Part shown: positions 9,701-16,086 of the stretch, in pieces
Layout: the number at the start of each line of letters is the position of its first letter
Numbering within the stretch: the first letter of the stretch is position 1
IMG/VR virus record: IMGVR_UViG_3300045412_000547
Length of the DNA stretch: 64,000 nucleotides
Source of the DNA: a virus
Strand: one strand, 5' to 3'
Notes under the pieces: generated by a model
Seen by the model: only the letters and a program-made list of their open reading frames with translations
What the model was told of the DNA's origin: nothing
The model's database searches: none
Position numbers and translations under genes: made by a program

Positions 9701-9945
9701 AAATTTACATATAAATCCTTAAGAGAAACTTTATTAGCCTGATCTAAGTTATTTTTATATGTATACCATCTGGTTAAATAGTTTTTATATTTTCCAAGAA
9801 ATATTTCAGGTGTTGTAAAAACTTCATTACTATACGTTAACCATTGTTTAAAAGTAAAAGGATTGTCTTTATCCAAGCCGTTTTTATTGCCAGAAATTAC
9901 CGATACGTCTAGTGTATTATTCTGTAGCTCAAGCATGTTTGGCAT
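6715..9945 (-). CDS. Large virion structural protein (baseplate-associated), function unknown
   Basis: 1076-aa ORF rich in N, Y, F and S, with a late box 5 nt upstream, inside the tail/baseplate cluster. Confidence 0.5.
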
Positions 9946-9984
9946 TAAATTATTTATTACTAACTACTAAAATGAAAAGTACTA

Positions 9985-11253
9985 TTATACAGATCTGCCT
10001 ACTTGAAAGTACTTTCTTCCGGATAGCGTCAAAACAGGTGCTTTTGAAGTATATACCAAAATATTATTTTCGGATGATACTGTTGGCATCTTTAAATCCC
10101 AGGGCACTATATCTAAATCTCTTACAATACTTGTAATTCTACACCCTATAGAATATGAATCGTCTGGAGGGCCAGCAAAAAGCAAACCAATTGTTTTCCA
10201 TGCAGATGCAGAAGGTACATTCGAGCTTAGTAATGCAAACATCGCGGAACCCGAGTCACCGCCTCCACCGGGTGAAACATTACCCTGTACATAGAAACTG
10301 TCACTAAACCAGCTTCTATATCCACTATATAGTCCAACATTTGCATAGCCAAGTTGATATACAGATAATTTACAAAAATTACTAAACCCAGGAAAACCTA
10401 TAGGGCCTTTTGTTCTGCCTGATCTAAAAATAGGTGATCGGTAATTAAGAGATGTTGGATCTATTAGAGAATCAATTTCGTGATCTGATGCAAATTTATA
10501 AGGTGGCATCTCACTAAAATTTACCACCCTTCCACTGCTAAGAGGGTCTATTAAATTATAACTAGAAAGTTGTAAAATAGCTGCATCTACAGATGTGCCT
10601 TGGATATAACCATATGGGTCTAGAGAAGGAGAAATATTACCTATGAGTACTGGTCTCTTACATTTTCCTATATAATCAATACTTGAATCTGTATTTCCAT
10701 AACTATTACTGGAAGGTGAACCTGGTTGTCTACCACTTAATTCAAGCGTGTTAATTTTCCCTAAATTATTAGCTGTTGTAGAGCTCACTGCTGTAGATAC
10801 CTGAGATGCTGCATAAACATGGTTATTGCTTAAAGCTACAACCTGCCCGTCGGATTTATCTCTAACGATTAAACCAAGAGTAGCATCTGATGAGTTTATA
10901 TTTATACTACTTATGCCTCCCACAAGAGGTCTATATCTTATCCTATTACTTTTAACAGGTTCAACGTTTTCACTATTATTATGGCATGCAGTGGTTGCTA
11001 TTGTTTGGTGTAAAATTGTTTCCTGAACGTCCGTTAATACTATTTCTGTTTCAATTTCTAAATTCTGAGGAATAATCATATTTGAAGGTAATTGTGAAAG
11101 GGGTAACTTTTCTTTTACCAGTAAAATTAAACACATCTGTTCTGTAGATTGACCGTTTGTAATCTTAGGACCTACAAGAGCCCCTTGTACGTTATAGGGT
11201 AATTCTTTAAATTTACCTTCTCTGATCCATTGTAATGTTTTATATATATTCAT
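9985..11253 (-). CDS. Nal1-like trypsin-fold serine protease
   Basis: Catalytic triad motifs SNNHV (His), SVDAA (Asp) and GDSGS (Ser); also RYRPLVGGISS, ATLG, SGRT and a Nal1-type N-terminal region (NVQG..VG.KI.NG..LV.EKLP..IP..TDV). Confidence 0.85.
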   Translation of the reverse strand: MNIYKTLQWIREGKFKELPYNVQGALVGPKITNGQSTEQMCLILLVKEKLPLSQLPSNMIIPQNLEIETEIVLTDVQETILHQTIATTACHNNSENVEPVKSNRIRYRPLVGGISSININSSDATLGLIVRDKSDGQVVALSNNHVYAASQVSTAVSSTTANNLGKINTLELSGRQPGSPSSNSYGNTDSSIDYIGKCKRPVLIGNISPSLDPYGYIQGTSVDAAILQLSSYNLIDPLSSGRVVNFSEMPPYKFASDHEIDSLIDPTSLNYRSPIFRSGRTKGPIGFPGFSNFCKLSVYQLGYANVGLYSGYRSWFSDSFYVQGNVSPGGGGDSGSAMFALLSSNVPSASAWKTIGLLFAGPPDDSYSIGCRITSIVRDLDIVPWDLKMPTVSSENNILVYTSKAPVLTLSGRKYFQVGRSV

Positions 11254-14200
11254 TAGTAATTTAATATATTTATTGTGCCTATCATATTGCTATGCACTGT
11301 GCACTGATAAAAAATAACATTAGGTGTACCGCTTGTAGGAGTGAATAATACTCTACCACTTGTTTTACCATTAACAATATCGTTATTATAAGTACCGTTT
11401 ACAGGATTTGTTGTATCACCACTTGCGTTTCTCAGAGCAAACGGATGACCTCCTAGATTAAGTATAAAATCATAATTTGTTCCACGGTAACAAGTAAGTG
11501 TGGGATTATTAGTTCCAAATTGTGAAATGTTATAGTATTGTCCAGGAGCAGAAACAGTTAAAGGCACAAAACTCGCAATATAAGTACTATTCACAATAGG
11601 TAATGTAACCGTTGGCGTGGGTGTGGGTGTAACCGGTAAACCAGATGCTGTGGGTGTAGGTGTAATATTGATGCAGGCCGAGCTGGTGGCCGAAGTGGGC
11701 TTACCTCCAAGAGTGCCTGTAAACCCAGAGCTAGTCGGGCAGTAGTAAATCGTCAGGTTAACGTGGGTGCCAGAGAAAACATTATTCCCCACCGTGGGAG
11801 CATTGCCCTGCATGGTGATGCTGGTAAGGCTGGTGCAGCCTTGGAACGCAGCATACCCAATGCTGGTCACGCTGTTGGGGATGGTGATGCTGGCAAGGCT
11901 GGTGCAACTAGCGAACACATAACCCCCAATGCTGGTCACACCGCTACCGATGGTGACGCTGGTAAGGCTGGAGCAATTTTCGAACGTCTGAGACCCAATG
12001 CTTCTCACGCCGCTACCGATGGTGACGCTGGCGAGGCCGGTGCAACTTTGGAACGCATAATCCCCAATGCTGGTCACGCTGTCGGGGATGATGATGCTGG
12101 TAAGGCCGGTACAATGAAAGAACGCAAAAATCCCAATGCTGGTCACGCTGGTGGGGATGGTGATGCTGGAAAAGCTGCAACCAGCGAACGCATTATTCCC
12201 AATGCTTCTCACGCCGCTACCGATGGTGACGCTGGCAAGGCTATTGCAACTAGAGAACGCATAATCCCCTATGCTGGTCACGCTGTCGGGGATGGTGATG
12301 CTGGCAAGGCTGCGGCAATTATAGAACGCATAAGTCCCAATGCTGGTCACGCTGTTGGGAATGGTGATGCTGGCAAGGCTGATGCAATTATAGAACACCC
12401 AACCCCCAATGCTAGTCACGCTGTCGGGGATGGTGACACTGGCAAGGCTGAAGCAACCAGAGAACGCTTCATTCCCAATGCTGGTCACATATAAACCAAT
12501 TTTTACAGCGGTTAAAGTTTTGTTGACGTTCCAGCTAGACTTGTACAACACCGTATCACTGCTGGTGCTGGTGGTTCCATCACTGTAATAAAAAATAGTC
12601 ACAGATGATGTACGGGTGGGGGTTAATGTTGGTGTGCTAGTAGGAGTTGGCGTGGGTGTGGGTGTAACCGGTAAACCAGATGCTGTGGGTGTAGGTGTAA
12701 TATTGATGCAGGCCGAGCTGGTGGCCGAAGTGGGCTTACCTCCAAGAGTGCCTGTAAACCCAGAGCTAGTCGGGCAGTAGTAAATCGTCAGGTTAACGTG
12801 GGTGTTATAGAAAACATTATTCCCCACCGTGGGAGCATTGCCCTGCATGGTGATGCTGGTAAGGCTGGAGCAGCCTTGGAACGCACCATACCCAATGCTG
12901 GTCACGCTGTTGGGGATGGTGATGCTGGCAAGGCTGGTGCAACTAACGAACGCATAACCCCCAATGCTGGTCACGCCGCTACCGATGGTGACGCTGGTAA
13001 GGCTGGAGCAACCAGTGAACGCACTATTCCCAATGCTGGTCACGCCGCTACCGATGGTGACGCTGGTAAGGCTGGTGCAATTATTGAACGCAATATCCCC
13101 AATGCTGGTCACGCTGTCGGGGATGGTGATGCTGGTAAGGCTGGAGCAATATTCGAACGCATGATGCCCAATGCTGGTCACGCTGTTGGGGATGGTGATG
13201 CTGGAAAGGCTGGTGCAATAAGAGAACGCCTCCGACCCAATGCTAGTCACGCTGTTGGGGATGGTGATGCTGACAAGGCTGAAGCAACCAGAGAACGCTT
13301 CATTCCCAATGCTGGTCACATATAAACCAATTTTTACAGCGGTTAAAGTTTTGTTGACGTTCCAGCTAGACTTGTACAACACCGTATCACTGCTGGTGCT
13401 GGTGGTTCCATCACTGTAATAGAAAATAGTCACAGATGATGTACGGGTTGGTGTAGGTGTTATTGTAGGTGTAGGTGTTATGGTGGGTGTAGGTGTAATA
13501 TTGATGCAGGCTGAGTCGTCGGGCACGGTGGGCTTACCTCCAAGAGTGTCTGTAAACCCAGAGCTAGTCGGGCAGTAGTAAATCGTCAGGTTAACGTGGG
13601 TGCTTGAGAAAGCGCCATCCCCCACCGTGGGGGCATTCCCCTGCATGGTGATGCTAGTAAGGCTAGTGCAATTAAAGAACGCATAATCCCCAATGCTGGT
13701 CACGCTGTTGGGGATGGTGACGCTGGCAAGGCTGGTGCAATTAAAGAACGCAAAATTCCCAATGCTGGTCACGCTGTCGGGGATGGTGACGCTGGCAAGG
13801 CTGGTGCAACCATAGAACGCACTATACCCAATGCTGGTCACGCTGTTGGGGATGGTGATGCTGGTAAGGCTGGAGCAATTTCTGAACGCACCATACCCAA
13901 GGCTGGTCACATATAAACCAATTTCTACAGCGGTTAAAGTTTTGTTGATGTTCCTGCTGGAATCTAACAACACCGTATCACTGCTGGTGCTGGTGGTTCC
14001 ATCACTGTAATAGAAAATAGTCACAGATGATGTACGGGTGGGGGTTAATGTTGGTGTGCTAGTAGGAGTTGGCGTGGGTGTTGGTGTAGCAGGATTGCCC
14101 GATAATGTTGGCGTGGGTGTAGTAGGATTGCCCGATAATGTTGGCGTGGGTGTAGTAGGATTGCCCGATAATGTAACCGAAGGAGTTGGTGTGGGTGTAG

Positions 14201-14492
14201 TAGGATTGCCCGATAATGTAACCGAAGGAGTTGGTGTGGGTGAGGGCAATGGGTTATTTAGCGTTATATTATTTTTAGCCACAACTATATATCCTGAATT
14301 ACTAATAAAATGGGTAAATTGCGGGGCAATATCGAATGGTCTGTAGGTTCTTAGGACGTATTGAGATGGGGCTACTATTTGTACCGCACATAAAGAAGCG
14401 CTAATCGAGCTTAATGCTATAGGTACTTCAAAAGGATATTGAAATACGGAGTATTTACCAAAAGAATCGCCAGGCAAAATAATCTGATTCAT
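11253..14492 (-). CDS. BspA-type (LRR_5) leucine-rich repeat protein with three LRR modules, Thr-Pro linkers and a C-terminal cupredoxin-like domain; probable receptor-binding protein
   Basis: 21 repeats of VTSIGxxAFxxCxSLxS(I/V)TIP(N/D)S in blocks of 4, 7 and 10; C-terminal HPF..YQCTVHSNMIGTI. Confidence 0.9.
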   Translation of the reverse strand: MNQIILPGDSFGKYSVFQYPFEVPIALSSISASLCAVQIVAPSQYVLRTYRPFDIAPQFTHFISNSGYIVVAKNNITLNNPLPSPTPTPSVTLSGNPTTPTPTPSVTLSGNPTTPTPTLSGNPTTPTPTLSGNPATPTPTPTPTSTPTLTPTRTSSVTIFYYSDGTTSTSSDTVLLDSSRNINKTLTAVEIGLYVTSLGYGAFRNCSSLTSITIPNSVTSIGYSAFYGCTSLASVTIPDSVTSIGNFAFFNCTSLASVTIPNSVTSIGDYAFFNCTSLTSITMQGNAPTVGDGAFSSTHVNLTIYYCPTSSGFTDTLGGKPTVPDDSACINITPTPTITPTPTITPTPTRTSSVTIFYYSDGTTSTSSDTVLYKSSWNVNKTLTAVKIGLYVTSIGNEAFSGCFSLVSITIPNSVTSIGSEAFSYCTSLSSITIPNSVTSIGHHAFEYCSSLTSITIPDSVTSIGDIAFNNCTSLTSVTIGSGVTSIGNSAFTGCSSLTSVTIGSGVTSIGGYAFVSCTSLASITIPNSVTSIGYGAFQGCSSLTSITMQGNAPTVGNNVFYNTHVNLTIYYCPTSSGFTGTLGGKPTSATSSACINITPTPTASGLPVTPTPTPTPTSTPTLTPTRTSSVTIFYYSDGTTSTSSDTVLYKSSWNVNKTLTAVKIGLYVTSIGNEAFSGCFSLASVTIPDSVTSIGGWVFYNCISLASITIPNSVTSIGTYAFYNCRSLASITIPDSVTSIGDYAFSSCNSLASVTIGSGVRSIGNNAFAGCSFSSITIPTSVTSIGIFAFFHCTGLTSIIIPDSVTSIGDYAFQSCTGLASVTIGSGVRSIGSQTFENCSSLTSVTIGSGVTSIGGYVFASCTSLASITIPNSVTSIGYAAFQGCTSLTSITMQGNAPTVGNNVFSGTHVNLTIYYCPTSSGFTGTLGGKPTSATSSACINITPTPTASGLPVTPTPTPTVTLPIVNSTYIASFVPLTVSAPGQYYNISQFGTNNPTLTCYRGTNYDFILNLGGHPFALRNASGDTTNPVNGTYNNDIVNGKTSGRVLFTPTSGTPNVIFYQCTVHSNMIGTINILNY
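11660..14040. repeat. Triplicated LRR module (cap + 69-bp tandem repeats + cap)
   Basis: Near-identical DNA caps (SSVTIFYYSDGTTSTSSDTVL; THVNLTIYYCPTSSGFT) flank arrays at about 11660-12620, 12700-13450 and 13500-14040. Confidence 0.95.
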
Positions 14493-15104
14493 ATGTTATT
14501 ATTTATTTTTTTTAAGATAAATTTACAACTCCATTTACAAAAATACCTGTAAATTGATAATTATTTCCTGGAGTACTATTTAATTTATATCCAAAAGATG
14601 TACCTAATCTATCTGTTGTAAAATTAATAAAACTTCTAAAACTACCGCTTAAATTTACAGTCATAGTAACAAAATCAATCGAACTACCACCATTATTAAA
14701 ATAAACAGTATCAGCATAGTTGTAGGGTGAAACGGAATTAATTTCTATCTTTTGACCCGGGCTAACATTTTCTGGACCTACTAAAGAAAATAGAAAGTTA
14801 GTACTAGAAGTTAATGACGGTGTCACACTGGGCGTTGCTGTTGTTGTAGGAGTAACCGGTAAACCAGATGCTGTGGGTGTAGTGCCCGGAATTCTTGTAG
14901 GTGTAAGCGTTTGGGTAGGGGTAGGGGTAGGTGTTGGTGTTGTTGTAGGAGTAACCGGTAAACCAGATGCTGTGGGTGTTGGTGTAGCAGGATTGCCCGA
15001 TAATGTAACCGAAGGAGTTGGCGTGGGTGTAGCAGGATTGCCCGATAATGTAACCGAAGGAGTTGGCGTGGGTGTAGCAGGATTGCCCGATAATGTTGGC
15101 GTGG
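14083..15104. repeat. 33/45-bp TPTP(SV)TLSGNP linker repeats shared between two adjacent genes
   Basis: ggattgcccgataatgt-containing units occur 4 times at about 14083-14240 and 3 times at about 14981-15104. Confidence 0.9.
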
Positions 15105-16086
15105 TGGGAGGGGTAGGAGTAGGGGTAGTCGGTAAACTAGATGCTGTTGATGTCGCTGTAGGTGTAATGCCCGGAATTCTTGTAGGTGTAAGTGTCTGAG
15201 TAGGTGTTTGTGTAGGGGTGGGTGTTGCTCCGGTATTAAAATATACGTTTCCTGCTATAAATGTACTGAAAAATTGTGGGTATGATTTATTAAACCCTTG
15301 TAGGCTATAACCAAACGGCTGACTAATTCTTGTTGATTCAAAGTCAACCTGAATTCTAGCTCTACCATCTACCCATATACGCATGGGGGGAATAGCAGGC
15401 AACCCTCCAGTGCTTACCCCATTAAAACAAAAACTATCTAAATAGTTTTCAGCTGAAAATAAAGAAATATCTTCAACAGTATTATTACCTTCAACACAAT
15501 ATGAAAATGGGTTCGGTGTTGTCGAAGGAGTAATTGAAGGAGTAATTGATGGAGTGCTTGTTTGAGATGAGGTTGGAGTATTGGTAGGTGAAGGAGTTAG
15601 TGTAGAAGTAGCGATAGGAGTAGGTGAATTTGAAGGTGTAGGTGTTTGTGTTGGTGTTTCTGATCGTGTTTCTGATGGTGTTTCTGATGGTGTGACTCCT
15701 ATAGTTAGTGTAGGGGTGCAGGTATTCGTGATTGTAGGTGTATTTGTAGGAGTTTCTGTTTGTGTTGGCGTTGCTGTTAAAGTATTGGAAGGCGTAGGTG
15801 ATTTGGTAACTGAAGGTGTAGGTGATTTGGTAACTGAAGGTGTAGGTGTATTTGTAGCTGTTTGAGAAGGCGTTACTGATGCGGTTGGTGTGTTCGAGGG
15901 AGTTATAGAAGGAGTAGGTGAATTCGTTGGGGTTGATGTTACAGGTATACCTAGATCCGCAGCGATGCCCACAAATCCTTCTTGCATAATTTTTTCAAAA
16001 CTCGTGCGACTTAATCGCTCTCTACGTAGACGATCGTTTGTACTTAAGTTGTCTAAAACCCGCGGATCTTTTTTACGCACAGCCAT
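14512..16086 (-). CDS. Mucin-like Thr/Pro/Ser-rich virion protein with two copies of a small beta-rich domain
   Basis: TPTP repeats plus two related domains (VDFESTRISQPFGYSL..FIAGNVYF and INFTTDRLGTSFGYKL..FVNGVVNL); late box upstream. Confidence 0.6.
   Translation of the reverse strand: MAVRKKDPRVLDNLSTNDRLRRERLSRTSFEKIMQEGFVGIAADLGIPVTSTPTNSPTPSITPSNTPTASVTPSQTATNTPTPSVTKSPTPSVTKSPTPSNTLTATPTQTETPTNTPTITNTCTPTLTIGVTPSETPSETRSETPTQTPTPSNSPTPIATSTLTPSPTNTPTSSQTSTPSITPSITPSTTPNPFSYCVEGNNTVEDISLFSAENYLDSFCFNGVSTGGLPAIPPMRIWVDGRARIQVDFESTRISQPFGYSLQGFNKSYPQFFSTFIAGNVYFNTGATPTPTQTPTQTLTPTRIPGITPTATSTASSLPTTPTPTPPTTPTLSGNPATPTPTPSVTLSGNPATPTPTPSVTLSGNPATPTPTASGLPVTPTTTPTPTPTPTQTLTPTRIPGTTPTASGLPVTPTTTATPSVTPSLTSSTNFLFSLVGPENVSPGQKIEINSVSPYNYADTVYFNNGGSSIDFVTMTVNLSGSFRSFINFTTDRLGTSFGYKLNSTPGNNYQFTGIFVNGVVNLS

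Follow-up and report, generated by a model that had tools for sequence, protein, structure and literature searches.

Three copies of a foreign BspA-type leucine-rich repeat cassette with T-ending hypervariable codons in a probable receptor-binding protein of a T4-like lake phage

Results

Organization of the LRR gene and its neighbourhood

[quoted passage not shown] The gene is set in a baseplate/tail-fibre block, in which neighbouring genes encode a baseplate wedge subunit, the tail sheath and the tape measure, as judged from PHROGs, together with RCC1 and PKD proteins identified by Pfam. Its parts, all on the minus strand, are as follows.

11253..14492, minus: whole gene for a BspA-type LRR protein of 1079 aa (open reading frame and translation; Pfam LRR_5, PF13306, E = 4.4e-170)
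14253..14492, minus: N-terminal domain, aa 1-80, with phage-type codon usage (GC3 0.25-0.30, as in the rest of the window)
14037..14252, minus: Pro/Thr-rich stalk 1, its DNA partly common with the neighbouring gene at 14512-16086 (tandem repeats and blastn)
13497..14036, minus: LRR module 1, with N-cap 13911-14036, 4 units 13635-13910 and C-cap 13497-13634 (unit map, cap alignment)
12699..13445, minus: LRR module 2, with N-cap 13320-13445, 7 units 12837-13319 and C-cap 12699-12836 (unit map, cap alignment)
11664..12614, minus: LRR module 3, with N-cap 12489-12614, 10 units 11802-12488 (one of 22 aa) and C-cap 11664-11801 (unit map, cap alignment)
11256..11612, minus: C-terminal domain, aa 961-1079 (GC3 0.15-0.23), a module shared with other proteins by sequence identity
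11802..13910, minus: 84 hypervariable codons, being unit codons 6, 7, 10 and 11 in the motif S-I-G-x-x-A-F-x-x-C (codon table and statistics)

Tandem repeats are found in stalk 1 (14068-14242) and in the neighbouring gene (14981-15096), and blastn matches of 31-36 nt at 97-100% identity connect the two. The C-terminal domain is 40-62% identical to the C-termini of the metagenomic proteins P0122-P0135 and P0137-P0154, in which the middle domains are unrelated to the LRR region and include RCC1, PA14 and lactonase. The LRR_5 profile matches the protein in five stretches with 557 bits, against a curated cut-off of 27.7. A phmmer search of the PDB returned 4GT6 (2e-60), 4FS7 (3e-58) and TpLRR 6MLX (1e-31), which indicates a related solenoid fold. 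Consistent with this, an AlphaFold2 model of module 2 (mean pLDDT 78, repeat core > 90) displays a regular 23-residue strand pattern, in which the hypervariable codons map to the non-strand stretch between the strands at unit positions 3-4 and 17-20.

Searches with the whole protein gave no orthologues; the matches were long cellular LRR proteins of 33-48% identity, which saturated the list. No direct relative of P0001 or of the 422-aa neighbour was present among viral_contigs, an exact 30-mer from the C-domain junction had no match in metagenome_contigs, and an exact-protein lookup returned no record for the upstream neighbours of the LRR gene or for the fibre protein P0156 described below.

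Repeat units and their hypervariable codons

The array comprises 21 units of 23 residues (69 bp; one unit is of 22 residues) at window positions 11802-13910, grouped as 4 + 7 + 10. The count of units given in the earlier note was exactly reproduced, as was its count of 70 T-ending codons among the 84 hypervariable ones, which divides over unit codons 6, 7, 10 and 11 as 20, 16, 15 and 19 of the 21 units. The 14 exceptions are GAA (four), GAG, CAA (three), CAG, TGG, AGA, TCG and GGC (two), and 10 of them encode E, Q or W, in agreement with the same note. AAT is the second commonest hypervariable codon (14/84), and the AAT AAT pair that the note had reported at both sites is present at codons 6-7 of the unit at aa 761 and at codons 10-11 of the unit at aa 461.

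In the framework the third base is mostly C or G and hardly varies even at synonymous sites, as had been noted: two units differ on average by 0.12 per site at framework third positions and by 0.65 at hypervariable positions 1-2. Differences between units in the scaffold and in the hypervariable codons are uncorrelated (rho = 0.003), and some adjacent units have a single scaffold difference yet five or six hypervariable ones, a combination that requires very strong selection or homogenization of the scaffold. Re-use of di-codons (for example GAT TAT, three times) was considered as a sign of intragenic exchange; with approximately 1.1 occurrences expected by a hand estimate, it is not significant.

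Third-base T is not explained by codon usage

The T-ending fraction of the hypervariable codons, 70/84, compares with 57/398 for the framework codons (Fisher p = 9e-35). When codons of the same prefix, and hence the same amino acid, are compared, the Mantel-Haenszel odds ratio is 60 (chi2 109). The ratio AAT:AAC is 14:0 in hypervariable and 4:7 in framework codons, AGT:AGC is 6:0 and 1:78, and TTT:TTC is 5:0 and 1:23. Codon usage was therefore rejected as the cause, because the same amino acids take T-ending codons at hypervariable sites but C-ending codons in the scaffold. Amelioration, in which the codons of the cassette drift towards phage usage, was rejected on the box counts: in four-fold boxes the hypervariable codons have 21 T and no A, whereas phage genes use T and A about equally (p = 7e-6), and in two-fold boxes the hypervariable codons count 45:0, where the phage background has 76% T (p = 1e-5). 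Relaxed constraint alone (of the type described by Akashi) is doubtful, since the semi-variable unit codons 13, 16 and 22 remain C-ending and variability by itself therefore does not give a T-ending codon. Moreover, the near-total use of T exceeds what relaxed codon selection combined with AT-biased mutation would predict.

The modules are foreign and recently duplicated

The LRR modules have a GC3 of 0.65-0.80 (0.65-0.75 in module 1), whereas end domains, stalks and phage genes range from 0.15 to 0.33. The LRR gene is absent from all 80 of 80 related phage loci, in which the baseplate wedge protein is 39-84% identical, and the scaffold DNA is 51/57 identical to a gene of Opitutales. The cassette is thus a foreign, GC-rich, BspA-type (LRR_5) element made of an N-cap, LRR units and a C-cap. 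The same cassette, with both caps, is carried in another fibre frame by P0156, a relative of which (in L136) has a different middle domain.

The three modules are recent duplicates. Their N-caps are nearly identical in the alignment, and modules 2 and 3 have caps and end units in common but differ in their interior units and unit number. In the unit pairs at aa 392/669, 507/852 and 530/875, the hypervariable codons differ by 0, 1 and 1 bases. Small differences of this kind are single steps, for example GTT/GCT and GGT/GCT, and GAT/GGT/GTT among the Opitutales alleles.

Other BspA-type arrays follow the same codon rule

In 31 of 32 other BspA-type arrays, which include those of Opitutales, Alistipes and Clostridia genomes, the T-ending fraction is higher among hypervariable than among framework codons. 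Mantel-Haenszel odds ratios are 1.9-2.2 (chi2 26-30). In five cellular arrays, T:C in two-fold boxes is 100:2 against a local background near 50:50. Across six lineages T makes up 98% of the pyrimidine endings at hypervariable codons, a uniformity that founder effects inflate, as units inside one array are not independent samples. In the four-fold boxes of these lineages T accounts for 56/59, although A-ending codons are common nearby, and T is retained in lineages even after turnover of the synonymous sites in their scaffolds. GC-rich arrays use NNC in place of NNT, so the third base follows genome composition.

The T-ending design is a habit of the LRR_5 family, cellular or viral, in genomes of ≤ 50% GC, and not evidence of an AAT template. 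The earlier note had named an NNT pattern in ordinary cellular BspA genes from genomes lacking a diversity-generating retroelement (DGR) as evidence against its own reading. Such a pattern is what was found: four of the five cellular genomes that carry it have no RVT_1 match. As ordinary bacterial BspA genes display NNT too, it is not a DGR footprint. Our literature search found no description of a T- or pyrimidine-ending rule at four surface codons, nor of a DGR that targets LRRs.

Turnover of the array

A second assembly of the same phage, L108, shows 0 differences from the window over 9871-11700 (1.8 kb) and 94 differences over 11800-12267 (approximately 470 bases) inside the array, where module 3 is the part that differs. 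This is one comparison, and the L108 contig ends inside the array. Its seven units comprise one that matches the module 2 unit at aa 438 exactly, a near-identical one and five new ones. The C-cap is in part module-2-like and in part module-3-like, and an assembler jump between modules could have taken place here, although the units of L108 are distinct from both window modules. In Opitutales, alleles of 545, 568 and 591 aa display whole-unit differences and also swapped units.

In contigs from lake-water metagenomes (Logan), the flanks resolve into two strains approximately 0.5% apart. The unitigs over the array itself are 100-170 bp long, and the majority can be placed at two positions; their depths add up to 3-30 times the flank depth, and array variants could not be assigned to a unit or an organism.

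An array that differs between identical flanks indicates that gain, loss and exchange of repeats act here, and it is concluded that they act together with selection on the first and second codon positions. The alternative of repeat-level conversion in a variable LRR receptor, which the earlier note had also offered, is supported by the unit numbers of 4, 7 and 10, the near-identical caps, the differing L108 array and the bacterial unit swaps.

Discussion

The analysis points to a protein of modular build that would serve an uncultured T4-like lake phage in host recognition or adhesion. It carries three foreign BspA cassettes and probably owes its diversity to substitution and unit exchange, with no retroelement; its binding function, its place in the virion and its host are what we infer. 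In the proposed explanation, phage-native end domains and Pro/Thr stalks carry the three copies of the cassette, and the four codons of each unit would line one exposed ridge of the solenoid, a putative ligand-binding surface. Point substitutions at codon positions 1 and 2 would be retained by diversifying selection, while whole units would be gained, lost and exchanged by homologous recombination between near-identical 69-bp repeats, which recombination-dependent replication of the T4 type would make frequent. The third base is proposed to stay put because changes there are mostly silent and hence unselected, and the favoured residues Y, N, D, H, S, G and F would need or allow a third-position pyrimidine. 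No retroelement would be required.

The earlier note had instead read the repeats as diversified from an AAT-AAT template. For this, a DGR elsewhere in the phage genome, consisting of a reverse transcriptase (RT) and a template repeat, would rewrite the four codons by adenine mutagenesis. NNT is indeed the product expected of AAT under A-to-N mutagenesis, AAT is as frequent as described above and paired at both sites, the array differs between strains, and the window represents 64 kb of a genome of at least 136 kb. Against this, no RT was detected within the 64 kb by Pfam on 17 ORFs (no RVT_1), by PHROGs on 10 more (no RT family) or by tblastn and phmmer with BPP-1 Brt on the six-frame window (best E = 0.11). 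Nor was a template copy found in the gene-masked window, where nhmmer with a 20-unit profile gave a best E of 5.3 and blastn-short returned only Pro/Thr-linker matches. The nearest virus record (G001), a fragment of 24.5 kb with neither an RT nor an LRR gene, is uninformative on this point. The adenine-focused change that had been noted in the framework stands in part: by consensus base, A deviates most often overall (16% of cells; C 11%, G 5.5%, T 1%), but A, C and G deviate equally often at the first codon position (A 32/230, 13.9%; C 6/42, 14.3%; G 12/84, 14.3%), and no adenine bias is left once codon position is controlled. Moreover, the 14 hypervariable codons that are not NNT (17%) are unreachable from AAT, the third base is involved in 5 of the 17 codon differences between L108 and the window, and paralogous units of modules 2 and 3 have retained their hypervariable codons. 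Five of the 12 scaffold adenine sites per unit never vary, and 17% of scaffold-A cells are changed compared with 58% at hypervariable positions 1-2. The fold is that of an LRR and neither a C-type lectin nor Ig, and the variable codons are scattered through the central 2.1 kb of the gene; we know of no DGR variable region that resembles 21 dispersed 12-nt targets. Taken together with the NNT pattern in cellular genomes that have no RVT_1 match, the DGR interpretation is not supported, and we regard it as highly improbable. The resemblance to the BPP-1 Mtd/TR/Brt system lies in localized hypervariability of a phage receptor-binding protein (here putative) and in variable codons that stay stop-free under mutation of the first two bases, as with AAY. 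The window differs from that system in having no RT or template, no adenine specificity, no C-type lectin or Ig fold, and 21 dispersed sites as opposed to one C-terminal region.

A targeted process that needs no RT could act on the four codons through short-patch templated exchange, or through damage in heteroduplex bubbles during repeat recombination, with NNY or NNT as a second-order adaptation that avoids stops; AAY in DGR templates and AGY in antibody CDRs keep mutation stop-free. It would fit a third base that is frozen at T in six lineages with differing scaffold synonymous sites, the predominance of T in four-fold boxes, the C-ending semi-variable codons and the absence of correlation between scaffold and hypervariable differences. 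Neither a candidate enzyme nor a donor cassette was seen in the window, however; the NNC of GC-rich arrays matches genome composition, recent changes are single steps or whole-unit events, as from ordinary mutation and recombination, and non-independence of units inflates the uniformity. We consider this process unlikely. It is rather improbable that an RT-free diversification process tied to repeat recombination, or strong second-order selection for a stop-free mutational neighbourhood, lies behind the pyrimidine codon design (T at approximately ≤ 50% GC) that BspA-type arrays from several bacterial phyla and from phages have in common at exactly four surface positions of each repeat, with turnover of the first two bases. 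If one of them does, the arrays would amount to a binder library, natural and genetically encoded, from which phages take swappable cassettes for receptor binding. The remaining explanation is standing variation, in which the array was already diverse when the phage acquired it and was then copied, with no diversification in the phage. The foreign composition of the modules, the NNT pattern that pre-exists in cellular relatives and the stability of paralogous units agree with it, but modules 2 and 3 combine common caps and end units with different interior units and unit numbers, and L108 has, between identical flanks, five units that the window lacks. Units thus went on turning over within the phage population, and standing variation by itself would be a rather improbable account.

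Substitution and unit exchange within a foreign cassette, the preferred reading, can be compared with known LRR systems. Solved examples of the BspA-type or TpLRR family include 4GT6, 4FS7, 4H09, Treponema pallidum TpLRR (6MLX) and pneumococcal PcpA (4CP6). The phage protein shares with this family the 23-residue unit, the motif I-P-x-S-V-x-S-I-G-x-x-A-F-x-x-C-x-x-L and a solenoid in which each unit is predicted to form two short strands. The members known to date are surface proteins of bacterial and protist cells, whereas here three capped modules stand on Pro/Thr stalks between phage-type ends in a T4-like baseplate/fibre block. In lamprey and hagfish, cytidine deaminases take part in the somatic assembly of VLRs from silent donor cassettes that flank an incomplete gene. 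Like the phage protein, VLRs are LRR solenoids in which caps and end units are constant, whereas the interior units are diverse and vary in number; here the variation is between phage genomes, not within one, the gene is intact, and no LRR-unit-like DNA that could serve as silent donor cassettes was found outside it in the window.

The hypervariable cell-surface LRR loci of Flavobacterium psychrophilum comprise near-identical units of approximately 22-23 residues, which depart from one another at a small number of hypervariable positions situated on one face (Altae-Tran et al., 2020; PMC10392669; see also Duchaud et al., 2007, as cited there). Unit number and sequence vary between strains while the flanks are conserved, with signatures of recombination and without mobile-element genes, and up to 19 genes, with gene fragments interspersed, lie in tandem and have T9SS signals (PMC10392669). 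That paper makes no mention of codons concerning the LRR repeats. The phage array likewise has near-identical units with few hypervariable positions (framework third-base identity 0.88, against a difference of 0.65 per site at hypervariable positions 1-2), and a variable unit number and sequence between conserved flanks, in the one comparison of L108 with the window. It differs in being a single gene with three internal modules, and no other LRR unit, gene fragment or silent cassette is present in the window.

For screens of DGR targets, hypervariable LRR codons confined to NNT are a tempting false positive and not a DGR signature. For phage biology, the locus provides an example of a BspA-type LRR cassette that was imported, triplicated and probably put to use in receptor binding, with turnover in a second assembly limited to the array. 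The presence of this cassette in a second fibre frame suggests that LRR modules can be exchanged between freshwater phage fibres as units of specificity. The T- or pyrimidine-ending rule at four surface codons, which recurs in unrelated bacteria, may bear on how repeat binders evolve in general.

Gene layout and genomic setting

Among the products encoded in the window, which is that of a T4-like myovirus, are baseplate wedge, tail sheath, tape measure, large terminase, family-B DNA polymerase, DnaB-like helicase and SbcC-like nuclease, together with gp32, RecA/UvsX-like, clamp-loader and T4 baseplate proteins. The tail sheath shares only ~40% identity with its counterparts in pelagiphage HTVC008M and in cyanophages, and matching DNA came from lake-water metagenomes. 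A single ORF contains the whole array, and its product is assigned by Pfam to LRR_5 (BspA type; 557 bits, E = 4.4e-170).

Layout of the LRR gene and protein
Window 11253-14492, minus strand: LRR gene, product of 1079 aa
aa 1-80: N-terminal domain
Pro/Thr stalks: a further layer of the protein
Three modules, each with N-cap, LRR units and C-cap: 4, 7 and 10 units, 21 in total, one of them 22 aa long
aa 961-1079 (window 11256-11612): C-terminal domain

The gene lies directly downstream of baseplate genes, amid large RCC1 and PKD proteins, and from this placement the natural inference is that the LRR protein is a fibre or appendage component. The Pro/Thr-linker DNA of the LRR gene (window 14068-14242) has an almost exact counterpart at 14852-15096, within the gene upstream of it (14512-16086); the repeats have periods of 33 and 45. 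Open frames antisense to the LRR gene on the plus strand (11763-12494, 243 aa; 12798-13325, 175 aa; 14038-14346, 102 aa) are most probably not genes but a side effect of a codon set that is repetitive and poor in stops. Metagenome runs X3 and X4 contain, over window 9985-16086, a second strain that is ~0.5% diverged in the flanks, with deletions of 3 nt at 11640 and 12 nt at 15654.

Codon pattern and predicted structure of the units

T is the last base of 70 of the 84 hypervariable codons (unit codons 6, 7, 10 and 11, four per unit), exactly as the earlier note had counted by hand. Its further observations also hold: E, Q or W account for 10 of the 14 exceptions, AAT AAT is present at both hypervariable sites, and the scaffold is almost invariant even at synonymous sites, with a mean pairwise difference per site of 0.12 at third positions. 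At positions 1-2 this value is 0.15 in the scaffold and 0.65 in the hypervariable codons. When codons sharing the same prefix are compared, hypervariable codons end in T and scaffold codons in C (Mantel-Haenszel odds ratio 60, chi2 = 109). The hypervariable-codon observation is thus real and statistically strong.

Same-prefix codon counts in the 21 units (hypervariable; scaffold)
AAT:AAC, 14:0; 4:7
AGT:AGC, 6:0; 1:78
TTT:TTC, 5:0; 1:23
GAT:GAC, 4:0; 0:5

The same-prefix comparison rules out an amino-acid effect as the source of this contrast. Plain uptake of phage codon usage was also rejected, since T and A are about equally frequent in the four-fold boxes of the phage, whereas those of the hypervariable codons hold T 21, A 0, C 2 and G 1.

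An AlphaFold2 model of module 2, made from the single sequence (mean pLDDT 78, repeat core >90), places strands at unit positions 3-4 and 17-20, with the four variable residues in the non-strand stretch between them. Given solenoid geometry and the modelling in PMC10392669, these residues would stack as one exposed ridge.

Origin and modularity of the cassette

The LRR modules are compositionally foreign. Their GC3 is 0.65-0.80 and A-ending codons are almost absent; the end domains, the stalks and the remaining phage genes have a GC3 of 0.15-0.33. No part of the LRR protein was found in 80 related phage loci (L001-L080, sharing the baseplate wedge gene at 39-84% identity) up to 10 kb downstream of that gene, so the appendage block is lineage-specific. 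The phage scaffold consensus is identical to that of Opitutales at 51 of 57 positions.

The C-terminal domain, which has no Pfam match, also forms the C-terminus (40-62% identity) of >30 metagenomic proteins with other middles, among them RCC1, PA14 and lactonase. It carries a motif, H-P-F ... Y-Q-C-T-V-H-S-N-M, with an apparent resemblance to a cupredoxin copper site. P0156, a JGI protein from the fibre of another aquatic phage, has the same LRR cassette and both caps between different N- and C-terminal domains, and a close relative of P0156 (L136:1105-2370) has a non-LRR middle, which shows the cassette to be swappable. In the window phage the cassette was imported and has recently been triplicated.

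Tests for a diversity-generating retroelement

According to the earlier note, the array had been diversified from an AAT-AAT template by a DGR-like process or by repeat-level conversion. A DGR reverse transcriptase and a template copy of the repeat were sought in the window and neither was found. Pfam on 17 ORFs and PHROGs on 10 more gave no reverse transcriptase, and the known DGR enzyme BPP-1 Brt, taken from its annotated record, gave nothing by tblastn against the window or by phmmer against all its six-frame segments of at least 50 aa (best E = 0.11). A profile of the 69-bp unit recovers 21/21 units in the gene, its best E elsewhere in the window being 5.3, and blastn-short returned only Pro/Thr-linker matches.

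The focus of framework changes on adenine did not bear out: at codon position 1, A, C and G each deviate in ~14% of cells, and by consensus base the scaffold deviates at A in 16%, C in 11%, G in 5.5% and T in 1%. Moreover, 5 of the 12 scaffold adenines per unit never vary, and 17% of scaffold A cells are changed vs 58% at hypervariable positions 1-2. A DGR that mutated all template adenines alike would ruin most products, so the constancy of the scaffold adenines is a mechanistic misfit. Modules 2 and 3, whose N-caps are nearly identical, arose by recent duplication, and in their hypervariable codons the paired first and last two units show 0 (aa 392/669), 1 (aa 507/852) and 1 (aa 530/875) base differences. 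The hypervariable codons have therefore been stably inherited through the recent duplication, with no re-randomisation since. With neither enzyme nor template in the 64-kb window, no adenine bias at codon position 1, stable inheritance and cellular genes of the same kind (below), the DGR interpretation is not supported.

Third-base usage in other BspA-type arrays

A DNA pattern that fixed scaffold codons alone gave 26 viral stretches, and a stricter scaffold pattern yielded five metagenome contigs. Three of these (L110, L112 and L113) carry alleles of one signal-peptide-bearing LRR protein, 96% identical to an Opitutales MAG protein. A protein-based scan of reference genomes, in which no DNA feature guided the choice, added 20 cellular loci. 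The T fraction is higher in hypervariable than in scaffold codons in 31/32 arrays with at least five units; founder effects within arrays leave fewer independent data points, but all 31 point the same way. Odds ratios computed within strata of locus and codon prefix are 2.2 (chi2 26) for the viral set, pattern codons excluded, and 1.9 (chi2 30) for the cellular set. The effect is extreme in homogenised-scaffold arrays from genomes of at most 50% GC: Opitutales, Alistipes, two Clostridia and Acutalibacteraceae. Pooled over five cellular arrays, T:C is 100:2 in two-fold boxes, where the local background is near 50:50, and T fills 56/59 four-fold codons. GC-rich arrays end in C at hypervariable positions (L096: 92%). 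At L116, L117, L120, L123 and 27 further loci the hypervariable third base is T, or C if GC-rich, far above scaffold. Local background codon usage does not account for the excess.

The pattern that the earlier note had linked to DGRs is therefore found in ordinary cellular BspA genes, an outcome which that note had named as counting against a DGR; as to whether their genomes are free of DGRs, four of the five, which are incomplete MAGs, give no RVT_1 match, and the fifth has one on another contig. The third-base rule is family-wide and independent of RT genes.

The uniformity of T is greater than relaxed codon selection and AT-biased mutation should give, and in three respects: T and not A in four-fold boxes, more than ~75% T in two-fold boxes, and T in lineages whose synonymous scaffold codons differ, these being lineage-specific. 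It is this excess that speaks for second-order selection, or for a targeted process of an undescribed kind, behind the near-total T, an explanation that we consider improbable.

Turnover of the array and proposed mechanism

L108, a JGI contig that encodes an identical 422-aa neighbour, represents the same phage in a second assembly. Comparison of L108:1-1020 with window 11253-12267 places 94 differences in ~470 nt of the array (11800-12267); there are none over the 1.8-kb flank (9871-11700). Divergence between the two assemblies is thus confined to the array. The terminal module of L108 has seven units and is collinear in scaffold type with window module 2. One unit is identical to that at aa 438 and one nearly identical to that at aa 461; the hypervariable sets of the other five, in which GTG, CTA and CCG codons occur, have no counterpart in the window. 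The C-cap resembles that of module 2 at its 5' end and that of module 3 at its 3' end. As read from this contig, which ends inside the array, the arrangement indicates probable inter-module exchange or deletion and a wider repertoire of units across the population.

Alleles of the Opitutales LRR gene from different metagenomes (L110, L112, L113 and L115; 545, 568 and 591 aa) differ from one another by entire units of 23 aa; two units have traded places, and one codon occurs in the single-step variants GAT/GGT/GTT. Together with L108, these alleles support the other process that the earlier note had proposed, an exchange of repeats within a variable LRR receptor.

At the DNA level the scaffold is conserved, while four codons in each unit vary strongly. 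In the mechanism that we favour, the four variable residues would form a binding face, and first- and second-base changes would be fixed there by diversifying selection. The third base would be carried along because silent changes at it escape selection, and the favoured residues would require a pyrimidine at this position. Homologous recombination between the 69-bp repeats would add, remove and exchange units and keep the scaffold uniform, and may be aided by the T4-type recombination functions encoded in the window.

Among published systems, the LRR locus of Flavobacterium psychrophilum, which varies between strains and is shaped by recombination, comes closest (PMC10392669). BspA-type LRR arrays with hypervariable codons are a known class, of which the window carries a phage-borne variant, and the codon regularity across the family is worth a systematic survey.
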